A stretch of DNA of 64,000 bases from Blastocatellia bacterium (GTDB taxonomy: Bacteria > Acidobacteriota > Blastocatellia > UBA7656), in NCBI GenBank assembly GCA_963765495.1, contig CAVXWP010000009.1:32001-96000 (forward strand), read 5' to 3'. The notes under the pieces are model-generated. The model ran no database searches and had not been told where the DNA came from. It was given only the letters and a program-made list of their open reading frames with translations. Positions within the stretch are counted from its first letter, which is position 1; each line of letters opens with the position of its first letter. A program made the position numbers and the translations under genes. Positions 7,273 to 9,942 of this stretch are shown here, in pieces.

Positions 7273-7300
7273 CTGCTATGAAAATAAGAGTAGGTGTTGA

Positions 7301-9635
7301 TCAGGCAGCTTGCTCGACCTCTTCAACAGTTACTCTCAAGCCCGTCCCCTCAAGCTGTCGGATTAATCTTCGCCGCTGCTTCTCTACATTCCTTTTGTCC
7401 AGATAATCTACTCCCAACTCTTTGTAACCGGCTCTCTCTTCTAAGACGTGATATACAATCACAAGTATCGAATGTGCTATTGCTACCAGCGCCTTCTTCT
7501 TCCCCATTCTCTTGACCAGCCTTTTGTACTTCGCTGCAAGGAAACAATCCTTCTGATGCTTGCTGCCCAGGCTGCCTGCACAAGGGCTGCTTTTAGATAG
7601 CTATTGCCCTTTTGGGTTCTTCCACTCTTTCGTTTTCCTGCCGATTGATTATTACTGGGACAGATCGAAGCCCAACTTGAGAGATTCTTGTCTGTTGGGA
7701 AGCAGCTCATATCTACTCCAATCTCAGAGACAATGATCTGGGCTAAGGTCTTTGCGACTCCTGGAATAGAATCGAGAAGCTCAACAGCTTGCTTAACAAA
7801 AGGGTCTGGGGAAGTTTCGACCTCCTGGCTGATCTTCTCTTCAACCCTCTTAATAGAGGATTCAACCGAGTCATACTGATCGAGGAGTTCTTTAAGAATC
7901 CAGCGTTGGGCAGAAGTGAGGCGACCGTGCAAAGCACGCTTCAAGTCAGCCTTCTTACGCTTCATCCTCCGACGAGCAAGGTCGCTGATCTTGTCAGCAT
8001 CGGTTTGACCATCAGCCAAAGCTCTCAGCATCAGCCTGCCGCTAACCCCCAAAGCATCACTAGCGACTTGAGCGAGCTTGATATTGGCGCTTTCAATCAA
8101 CTTCTGAATGCGATTGGCAAGAGCAGTCTGCTCACGGATAAGGCTCTGGCGGTAGCGAGTCAAATCCCTGAGTTCACGGATATGAGGAGGAGGGATAAAG
8201 CTGGGACGAAGCAGACCGTGACGAAGCAGGTCAGCAAGCCACTCACAATCCTTAACATCAGTCTTTCTGCCAGGAACAGCTTTGACGTGGCGGGCATTAA
8301 CCAAAATAACCTCCAGGGAGGATTCGAGGATATTGAAAACAGGCTTCCAGTAAACGCCAGTACTTTCAATAGCGACGTGAGTGCAGCCTTGAGAAGTGAG
8401 CCAGTCGAGCAATAATAGAATTAGATAGTTTTTTGTTTGTTGTGTTGGTGTTTTTTTTTTGTTTTTTTGTGTGTTGGTGTGTTTGGTTTTTTTTGAAGTT
8501 GATATTTAGTTGTTGTTGTTTTATGGATAGGAGTAGAATATAGATGATTTTATGTTTAGATGGATGTTTATGATATATGTTGTGTGTAAAAAAATATTGG
8601 TTGATTTTTTATGTTGAGTGAGTAGGATTGATTTAAGTAAGGATTGTGAGATGTGTTGGTAGTAGGTTGAGTTATTTGATATTAGTGAGTAAGTTTTTAT
8701 TATAAGTTGTTTTAGTTATAGTGAGGAGATGTTATAAGTATGGATTGATGATATTATATAAAGTTATTATTTTACGTTTTGTGGTGTATTAGTGTTTGTT
8801 TAGTGGGAGTATTATGAAGTTTGTTGATATTTTGTGATGTTATATGTGTGAAGGGAATAAAAGTGATATATTTGGTTTTAATTTGAGTTGTTGTGATTTA
8901 GTGTATGTTTATATTGTATTTGTTGTGAGGTTTGTTTATTATGATTGTAAATTAAGTTTGGGGTATTGATATACTTATATCTGATTTGTGGTGTGTGGAT
9001 GTATTGGTAGTATTGTTGGATTGTTATTAGTGTTATATATTGAGTTGGGAATTGGATTAGAGTTTGGAGTATTTTTTCGTGATGGTAGTATTAGAATAGG
9101 TGTTTGTTAAAGTTTGTTTAGGAATTTGGAACTCTGATTAGGGGAGTTACTTCACTAGTTTGTAATATATATATCGACTGAAAATGGTTGGGTTGTAAAT
9201 CAGTATGGATGGTAAAGGTTGTGTTTTGGATAACATCTTTACGTAGTGTTTATGGAGAAGTATCAAGTATGAAGAGGTCTATCTGTATTCTTATGTTTCA
9301 CGAAGAGAAGCTCGACAAAACATTACTAGGTATATGTGATTCTATAATGAAGAGCGTCTACATCAGTCACTCGATTACTGGACACCGGTTGAAGTCGTAT
9401 TTCAGTTGTGAGAATGAGAAACATCAGCGAAACGATTCTATAATGAAAGGAGAAAAGTCCACTTTAGGCATAGGTAATTTTTTGTCTTGATTTTGTGGAC
9501 CACCTTAAGGGCAAGCAAATCATCAGTCATGGTCGAGAAAGTGCGAACCTCTTTGTTGCCGTCAGTGATGAGGCAGGCGACAACGGTGCGAGCGTGAACA
9601 TCAATACCACAGCAAGAGTTGTAAAGAATCTGCAT
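7301..9635 (-). pseudogene. IS110-family DEDD recombinase, split by an insertion (8413-9507) and a frameshift near 7550
   Basis: MQILYNSCCGIDVH...TDDLL / LDWL...VAIESTGVYWKP...GRKTDVKD...CPSNNQSAGK / KKALVAIAHSIL; RBS AAAGGAG upstream. Confidence 0.9.
8413..9507 (+). mobile_element. Degraded IS3-family element with near-complete C-to-T conversion on the + strand
   Basis: Only 4 C in 8411-9131. The 3' part translates ISMDGKG(C)(V)LDNIFT*(C)LWRSIKYEEVYL...FYNEERLHQSLDY(W)TP(V)EV, i.e. OrfB with CGN>TGN and GCT>GTT changes. Poly-A frameshift site at ~8588; right end TGTCTTGATTTTGTGGACCACCTTA. Confidence 0.85.
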
Positions 9636-9859
9636 GATAGAACTCCTTTCGGCATTGGCGGGGAGCCTCAAAACAAAAGAGACTGCTATGCGTGCTCGAA
9701 GCAACAAGTTGTGATGCCTGAAAAGGCTCCCCAAGTCAAACTAACGACCGGGCTAAAGGCACCAAGGCCCGACGACCTATCAGCCAATGACCAGAAGGAA
9801 GGATACATAAACTCTCAGACATTTTCATCCGTCGTGAAGAAGCCTTGCTTCATGGATGC
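9636..9859 (-). ncRNA. Putative IS110 bridge RNA region
   Basis: Non-coding left end containing CTAACGAC (9741-9748, same as target flank 9860-9867) and CTGCTATG (9683-9690, same as right end 7273-7280); exact RNA boundaries unknown. Confidence 0.75.
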
Positions 9860-9942
9860 CTAACGACGAATTCAGCGGCGCGCTGGCGGCAAAGGGAGAA
9901 TGAGGCGGTGGAATGCGGGTCCGGTTGATGGACCAGTTAGGC
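9860..9942 (-). other. Integron attC site flanked by IS110 (R' core) and IS4 (R'' core)
   Basis: CTAACGACGAATTCAGCGGCGCGC...GCGGGTCCGGTTGATGGACCAGTTAGGC; left arm matches attC 4580, right arm matches attC 15633. Confidence 0.9.

Follow-up and report, generated by a model that had tools for sequence, protein, structure and literature searches.

A 64,000-nucleotide (nt) stretch of a Blastocatellia bacterium genome (G000:C9:32001-96000; hereafter the window) carries an IS110-family insertion sequence (IS) whose guide RNA is encoded upstream of its recombinase gene, and which was very probably inserted into the R' core of an integron attC site by means of a bridge RNA. This main element is read on the minus strand. 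Its copies share exact junctions at a dinucleotide AG, and two 8-nt segments of its long non-coding end match, respectively, the attC sequence beside which it lies and its own right end; in homologous loci the equivalent segments covary with the respective flanks and ends. A small derivative without a recombinase gene stands directly behind it.

Anatomy of the main element and its insertion site

The copy in the window (7275-9859) is a dead version of a 1,489-bp element, and was delimited by comparison with four intact, identical copies on contigs C9, C16 and C2. It consists of a 224-nt left non-coding end (9636-9859), identical to that of the intact copies, a recombinase gene (7301-9635) that encodes 412 amino acids (aa) when intact, and a 26-nt right end (7275-7300) ending ...TTTTCATAGC; two lesions break the gene here, the loss of 1 nt near 7560 and an insertion of 1,097 nt at 8411-9508. 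Across the five copies the left junction reads ...GTT-AG followed by GCATCC, the first bases of the element, and the right junction reads ...CATAGC-AG. The core dinucleotide lies at 9860-9861 at the left junction (CT on the plus strand), at 7273-7274 between the main element and the derivative and, from comparison of junctions, at 6962-6963 on the right, next to a DUF433 cassette. The original prediction, made from the sequence of the window alone, had regarded 6964-9861 as one inserted stretch; its deletion does remove 2,898 bp and joins ...CATGAGCCT to AACGACGAA, giving TTCGTC-GTTAGGC-TCATGG on the minus strand, but the stretch holds two elements, the main element and the derivative at 6964-7272, with the third core between them.

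Four of the five copies are located at the R' end of an attC hairpin (TCGTCGTT-AG-GC in three, GGTTGTT-AG-GC in one). Sites were recognized as attC by RYYYAAC ... GTTRRRY inverted core sites closing an imperfect hairpin, by their arrangement in arrays and by the presence of an integron integrase in the genome; pattern matches, hairpin fold and integrases were all found. In the attC occupied in the window (9860-9942, minus strand), the R'' box GCCTAAC is at 9936-9942, and the GTTAG of R' stops at the insertion point; the identification of the end at the insertion as R' follows from the flanking cassette genes, which have the same direction and terminate just before the other end of the site. 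The element is co-directional with the cassettes and has AG as its core, as had been proposed. Its first two bases, GC (9858-9859), rebuild GTTAGGC, which bears out the core regeneration foreseen in the original prediction, and the strict attC pattern still matches at 9858-9942. Genome-wide there are ~218 attC-like sites (437 pattern matches, both strands counted); TCGTCGTTAGGC occurs 58 times against ~1 expected, and an R''-like box lies upstream of 70 TCGTTAG-GC sites.

The recombinase contains PF01548 (DEDD, RuvC-like; E 1e-34) and PF02371 (Transposase_20; E 8e-21), and scores 311 bits against NCBIfam NF033542, 'IS110 family RNA-guided transposase' (cut-off 140). Similarity to IS621 (chain 8wt6_A) is distant (phmmer, E 6.5e-15); D12, the E of AIESTG, both D of KTDVKDC and the S of NNQSAG were aligned opposite D11, E60, D102, D105 and S241 of IS621, which are the catalytic D, E, D, D and the Ser of the SG motif. 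Its 412 aa fall within a 395-455 aa subgroup that includes IS110, and the long non-coding end lies upstream in intact copies (224 nt versus 26 nt downstream), a layout which fits the IS110 group and had been correctly recognized at the outset. The sole inverted match of at least 6 nt between the first 70 and the last 50 nt is 8 bp long (ATGAAAAT); its two arms start at distances of 32 and 4 nt from the left and right tips, respectively, which is not the 7/3-bp offset of IS1111.

The 1,097 nt that interrupt the recombinase gene have a relative in an IS3-type sequence at C2:553655-554579, of which nearly all C read T here. On the plus strand only 7 C were counted in 731 nt (8420-9150); relative to C2:553655-554579, 180 of 199 C read T, accompanied by 24 G>T and 12 A>T changes and 34 small gaps, and C-to-T conversion of both sequences lifts their identity from 73% to 92%. 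This looks like a base-calling or assembly artefact rather than deamination. A 194-nt contig from sequencing run X1 has C at seven places where the window reads T (9286-9400), although it may stem from another copy.

Predicted bridge RNA and covariation of its guides

Eighty homologous loci were collected (42-74% identity). The upstream ends of 34 of the 38 listed reference loci were aligned with three sequences from this genome, yielding 37 rows; 28 of 77 loci had been dropped beforehand for want of the anchoring motif, and 12 as duplicates or mis-anchored. Two hypervariable 8-mers stand between strongly conserved blocks of this alignment, the first after GAGCCCG (CTAACGAC as DNA, GUCGUUAG as RNA) and the second after GAGCACG (CTGCTATG as DNA, CAUAGCAG as RNA). 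Their final two bases agree with each other in 37 of 37 rows (AG in 23, AA in 11, AC in 3), and no further column of the alignment tracks the core; a core complement in a fixed column was accordingly rejected. Both 8-mers had been singled out in the original prediction, and were located at 9741-9748 for CTAACGAC and at 9683-9690 and 7273-7280 for CTGCTATG. Chance occurrence was gauged with shuffled sequences: in 200,000 shuffles of the 221-nt left end, GTCGTTAG appeared in 1,035, CATAGCAG in 321, and both together in none.

In the main element the first 8-mer, together with the next two nucleotides, UU (9739-9740), makes up the left target guide region at 9739-9748 on the minus strand; the 8-mer itself equals the GTCGTT of the attC plus the core AG. 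The second 8-mer, at 9683-9690 on the same strand, equals the CATAGC of the right end plus the core and was designated the left donor guide. Of 36 loci, 18 have a target guide that agrees with the upstream flank of the same locus at 7-8 of 8 positions (permuted pairs, 40 of 1,258), and 8 more agree at 6 of 8; the donor guide matched its own right end at 7-8 of 8 positions in 26 of 35 loci, against 111 of 1,191 permuted pairs. These matches lie at a constant distance and adjoin conserved end motifs. The claim that guides in the left end address both the R' end of the attC and the right end of the element itself was thus borne out, and the guide/target covariation which had been put forward as a check was recovered above the level of permuted pairs. 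The junctions of the relatives were located by means of the guides, and identities at guide positions are hence circular; the permutation controls, the core agreement, a 2-nt signal and a comparison of near-identical recombinases are independent of that circularity. In the last of these, L019/L058, L064/L066/L067 and L069/L070/L072 combine a different first 8-mer with the same second 8-mer, as a target guide and a donor guide, respectively, would be expected to behave. As to the 2-nt signal, the left end starts with the two nucleotides that follow the target guide in 22 of 28 loci (permuted 94/756), one of the two agrees in 5 loci and neither in 1; the mutual information between these positions and the start of the left end amounts to 1.45 and 1.16 bits.

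A candidate for the right target guide emerged from the 5' segment of the target module, composed of five variable nucleotides and the core complement. In 9 of 26 loci (permuted 61/648) at least 6 of its 7 positions are complementary to the core and the flank to its right, and complements to a locus's own flank concentrate there, with 14 in one 5-column bin. In the main element it reads CGGGCCU (9765-9771, minus strand) and pairs with the top-strand AG-GCYCG to the right of the insertion point. The candidate lies on the 5' side of the hairpin, in columns ~44-52 of the alignment, and the left target guide on the 3' side, in columns 77-84; with moderate confidence, then, the right target guide precedes the left one, the reverse of the order in IS621. 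Two other motifs of the original prediction are unsupported as guides. GATGCCT does occur at 9713-9719 and 9855-9861, but is a version of a GGCACC motif conserved throughout the family; as a right donor guide its RNA, AGGCAUC, would have the wrong sense, namely that of the left end, and its position does not track the flanks of relatives. Similarly, AGGCTC is present at 9724-9729 and its reverse complement at 6958-6963, but the RNA, GAGCCU, is the 5' strand of a covarying helix (stem1), at a position that likewise does not track flanks in relatives.

Covariation also supports the fold. Three helices, GGUC/GACC, UGG-GC/GCCCG and UGU-GC/GCACG, pair in 99.2% of cells; 8 of their pairs change on both sides, a result that 0 of 500 shuffles reached, and two of the three were recovered by RNAalifold as well. 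Of the 9 pairs of the long fourth helix, stem1, 8 or 9 form in 29 of 37 rows, compared with 234 of 1,320 permuted combinations, and this helix exists in many compensatory versions. The two hairpins are homologous and the RNA is therefore composed of two duplicated modules, in which the two left guides occupy equivalent places; one module matches the target and the other the donor, as in the IS110 group. In the main element the predicted RNA spans 9651-9792 on the minus strand, its ends being inferred, and comprises an outer helix (9783-9792/9651-9659), the target module, stem1 (9725-9733/9659-9667) and the donor module. A long-range GGUGCC/GGCACC helix was dropped from the model; it conflicts with a supported hairpin and is without real covariation.

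We propose that the 224-nt left end would be expressed as a bridge RNA of ~140 nt built from two duplicated modules, each with a short conserved hairpin, a right-side guide 5' of it and, 3' of it, an 8-nt left-side guide ending in the core dinucleotide. The target module, through CGGGCCU and GUCGUUAG, would recognize GTCGTT-AG-GCYCG on its two strands, a sequence that in this genome forms the R' end of one large attC family, and the donor module, through CAUAGCAG, would read the element's own right end, CATAGC-AG. The DEDD/Ser recombinase would then catalyze strand exchange at AG; landing would consequently be confined to one orientation, co-directional with the cassettes, and the first bases GC would rebuild GTTAGGC.

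A tree of the recombinases, which is a quick tree only and omits L014, L027, L037 and L083 for their short frames, places near-identical proteins (branch lengths ~0.02) under different phylum labels in two instances, L019/L058 (Clostridia/Blastocatellia) and L050/L051 (Chloroflexota/Deltaproteobacteria); either recent transfer or binning errors would explain them.

A gene-less derivative and other elements of the cassette array

The derivative (6964-7272, minus strand) is 309 bp long, lacks a recombinase gene and consists of a left end with its own bridge RNA and a right end; six copies were found in the genome. It aligns with the left end of the main element through all helices. Seven of the 8 positions of its left target guide, UAUAGCAG, agree with CATAGC-AG, the main element's right end, whereas its left donor guide, AGAGCAG, matches its own right end, CAGAGC-AG, and the UU that follows the target guide matches its own TT start. 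The left flanks of the six copies are the CATAGC-AG right end in three cases, the CAGAGC-AG right end in two and an attC R' end in one. With parent-like ends, no transposase gene, several copies, and positions both in tandem behind the parent and alone, the derivative resembles hitch-hikers of the MITE type (miniature transposable elements with inverted repeats). It would use the same RNA scaffold with the target guide switched to the right end of the main element, would therefore land in tandem behind the latter, and would be mobilized in trans.

Two tandem copies of the derivative (13515-13823 and 13826-14133) lie behind an 85-bp ends-only remnant (14136-14220) on the minus strand, the whole group (13515-14220) being inserted in attC 14223-14310 at GCGTT-AG. 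The lower of these copies ends, at 13513-13519, in ...TTTTCCGAGC-AA and not in ...TTTTCAGAGC-AG, so that right end and core are both altered.

Only one copy of the derivative, L008 (G000:C2:561271-561585), stands alone in an attC (CTCCTCGTT-AG ... AG-GCCCTCGC). The site fits the target module of the main element and not that of the derivative (left guide 7/8, next two nucleotides UU/TT, right guide 6/7), and that module fits the TT start of L008 better than the GC start of the main element itself. This hints that loops of two different RNAs were mixed; either this was the case or a main element once upstream has been lost.

Landing behind the right end of another element is unsupported as a habit of the family outside this genome. 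TTTTC-like left flanks occur in 6 or 7 of 26 relatives, and a recombinase gene was found upstream in 0 of 57 loci. An ends-only remnant upstream was seen only in L050, where ~95 nt, situated ~45-110 nt before the left junction, include AATGAAAAT in the start of a left end and then TATTTTCAGGTTAG; L050 is the sole relative to repeat the tandem arrangement of this genome.

Two further element types of the same kind are represented in the window. A third type is present as a left end at 1483-1635 (plus strand; left target guide GUGCGUUAG) in attC 1400-1482. It is truncated by an IS3-family element at 1636-2846 (HTH_Tnp_1 frame 1648-1980, rve frame 1980-2843), which sits inside the bridge-RNA region and after which no recombinase gene follows. 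A second full type (69% aa identity) is represented at 1-55, on the plus strand, by its 3' end, with the right end TTTTCATAGT and the core AG at 54-55. It has three copies in the genome, with the target guide AAUAGCAG: one behind a derivative, one at a poorly matching site and one with its left end cut by another insertion sequence. The cores at 54-55, 1481-1482, 9860-9861 and 14221-14222 had been presented as four uses of one insertion point; each does lie at an IS110-type end, but the one at 54-55 bounds a composite on its right; on its left this composite is bounded in an attC immediately beyond the window.

These elements are embedded in a gene-cassette array that makes up the first 15 kb of the window, with cassettes of toxin-antitoxin type (HicA/UPF0150, DUF433/DUF5615), a group II intron fragment and transposases of the IS3, IS4 and IS5 types. 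The genome encodes three integron integrases that score above the family cut-off, none of them on the contig of the window. A free attC of the same family as the occupied one, with an intact TCGTCGTTAGGC end, lies at 4580-4664, 2.3 kb from it, and constitutes a ready empty target. The intron fragment (3026-3692) retains the end of a reverse transcriptase with the maturase domain (3026-3613) and, after it, a stretch matching Rfam Intron_gpII (3617-3692, 58 bits); arrays of attC sites such as this one are known landing places of group IIC-attC introns. At 11519-12766 there is a distant IS110-family gene, 32% identical to the main recombinase and split into two frames, beside an IS4-type transposase gene (9953-11377) which ends 11 nt before the attC. 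An unbroken run of ~497 A at 828-1324, within the array, is implausible as native bacterial DNA and probably an assembly artefact.

Alternative explanations, known systems and implications

Several observations weigh against insertion by an attC-reading bridge RNA. The target guide matched its flank at 5 or fewer of 8 positions in 10 of 36 loci; 28 of the 77 homologous loci have no recognizable anchoring motif, so the alignment describes 37 motif-bearing sequences; and the main element is the sole locus of 28 whose two nucleotides after the target guide, UU, are unmatched to its own left end, GC. The signal for the right target guide, from 9 of 26 loci, is only moderate. No right donor guide was found by diagonals, by complements within each sequence or by mutual information: no column or segment is complementary to the start of the left end, and the core complement is missing from the end of the segment on the 5' side of the donor hairpin. 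The left end has no Rfam match (gathering scores over the whole window, E up to 10 for 9600-9900), and no sigma-70-type promoter match was present in 9600-9900. A terminator scan of that interval likewise returned nothing. To these must be added insertions outside attC sites. The fifth copy of the main element lies in an unrelated, non-attC gene at CTCTCGTT-AG-GT (TCGTT-AG-G), and the relatives L013, L015, L023 and L050 have a GTTAG-ending guide at non-attC sites. Homologous elements with the same guide at non-attC sites had been named beforehand as the finding that would overturn the original prediction; one copy of five is of this description, while four are in attC-like hairpins. What is recognized is therefore the sequence, and not attC as such.

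This leads to the alternative that fares best, although we regard it as rather unlikely: that there is no adaptation to integrons, and that a sequence of ~13 bp is recognized which has become common through the expansion of one attC family, making the link with attC a by-product of abundance. Besides the copy in the gene and the four relatives just named, it is favoured by the fact that the guide also reads GTC, which is outside the conserved R' core and specific to the attC family of this genome. On the other hand, three element types here use attC R' ends, including that of a different attC family (14223-14310); the flanks of L011, L012 and L027, which are labelled as other phyla, fold as CCTAAC...GTTAGG hairpins although only GTTAG is common to them; and the first bases of the main element restore GTTAGGC despite breaking the 2-nt rule of the family.

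It is improbable that the copy in the window is an assembly artefact, produced when a repeat copy from a poor long read was threaded into the array at attC 9860-9942. The stretch with 180 of 199 reference C read as T and 34 small gaps would be in keeping with such an event, as would the A run 6 kb away. Read support was available only from contigs of run X1, a soil metagenome and the sole matching run; they leave 8496-9150 uncovered, to which no weight attaches. In one of these contigs the DUF433 flank runs straight into attC letters: this joint, from 6959 to 9858, leaves out 2,898 bases, has 4 shared letters and is exactly the predicted empty site. It depends, however, on 27 letters of repeated attC on its shorter side at a likeness of 90, and is a weak hint. 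Both junctions of the element are exact at AG with the expected flanks, and the same type of junction recurs in four other copies on three contigs; an artefact at this locus would cost one copy and not the conclusion. Capture as or within a gene cassette by an integron integrase can practically be dismissed, for although three integrases are encoded in the genome and the attC to the left is formally intact, integron integrases cross over at G/TT in attC and the junction here follows GTTAG, the right end of the element is without an attC of its own, the same element occurs in a non-attC gene, and the junction bases are written in its RNA.

Insertion through a bridge RNA encoded upstream, the reading we prefer, invites comparison with IS1111-attC elements (ISPa21, ISPst6, ISKpn4, ISPa25), which likewise have a DEDD recombinase of the wider IS110 family and insert into attC in a site- and orientation-specific manner, the target being read by an element-encoded RNA. 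For ISKpn4 and ISPst6 this seekRNA is demonstrated in PMC11187229, which gives 330-350 aa for the transposases and locates the RNA, with its non-coding region, downstream of the gene; PMC3001079 describes these elements as inserting close to the attC 5' end and in antisense to the cassettes. The contrast with these published elements had been drawn correctly from the outset: here the RNA is upstream, only 26 nt follow the gene of the 412-aa protein, and the element sits sense-oriented in the 3' R' core. An origin independent of IS1111-attC seems likely.

IS621 shares several features: its RNA, with one loop for the target and one for the donor, is encoded in an upstream non-coding end, its left guides repeat the top strand inclusive of the 2-nt core, target and donor have that core in common, and its catalytic D, E, D, D and S residues align. 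Its protein is only distantly related and shorter (326 versus 412 aa), and its core is CT rather than AG. In IS621 the left target guide lies 5' of the right one in a single internal loop, whereas here the right appears to lie 5' of the left, on moderate evidence; moreover, the donor module is nested inside a long stem and has no right donor guide that we could find. The handshake-like signal of two nucleotides follows the left target guide here and matches the left end, in contrast to the handshake guides of IS621, which stand beside the right guides. ISEc21, another member of the IS110 family, also has an upstream non-coding region and a short RNA that matches both strands of a linear target, and it too targets a mobile element, namely IS3-family transposase genes; its bottom-strand match lies 5' of the top-strand match, opposite to the order here, and its protein is very distant from the main recombinase (a long branch in the quick tree). 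The order seen here is that reported for IS1111 members in PMC11187229.

The closest parallel to the derivative is ISPpu9/MITEPpu9 (ssr9), which is again an IS110-family element with an AG core accompanied by a small gene-less module with parent-like ends. According to PMC12288879, MITEPpu9 is found in tandem downstream of the transposase gene, and also alone and in tandem duplicates, is read as a hitch-hiker, and carries a small RNA complementary to an antisense RNA of its parent. The derivative, unlike MITEPpu9, carries a full homologue of the bridge RNA, with a target guide directed at the right end of the parent and a donor guide directed at its own. Group IIC-attC introns are RNA-guided mobile elements specialized on attC as well, but retrohome into the bottom strand near the attC 5' end, antisense to the cassettes, by unrelated enzymology. 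Full-text searches returned no description of an attC-targeting element with an upstream guide RNA, though subscription papers and supplementary tables (among them those of PMC11208160) may list such elements.

attC is already known as a landing pad for IS1111-attC elements and group IIC-attC introns; a third lineage that reads the opposite end of attC through a differently organized bridge RNA would, if true, represent repeated convergence on a harmless, abundant and mobile target. It is conceivable, although doubtful, that the clade as a whole uses a bridge RNA of reversed order together with a 2-nt guide reading the future left junction, and that co-resident elements reprogram their RNAs against each other. 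The derivative would then be a parasite that chooses its landing site beside the source of its enzyme, by means of a complete bridge RNA aimed at the right end of its helper; and the GC start of the main element, the sole exception to the 2-nt rule, would, by rebuilding GTTAGGC, perhaps leave the attC usable by the integrase, so that the element could travel with the next cassette. A derivative with its own re-aimed bridge RNA extends the hitch-hiker idea developed for ISPpu9/MITEPpu9. The locus provides a natural series of guide/target pairs, in three element types, a gene-less derivative and dozens of relatives, and the clade of 412-aa recombinases with an AG, AA or AC core is useful for understanding and engineering bridge recombinases beyond IS621.

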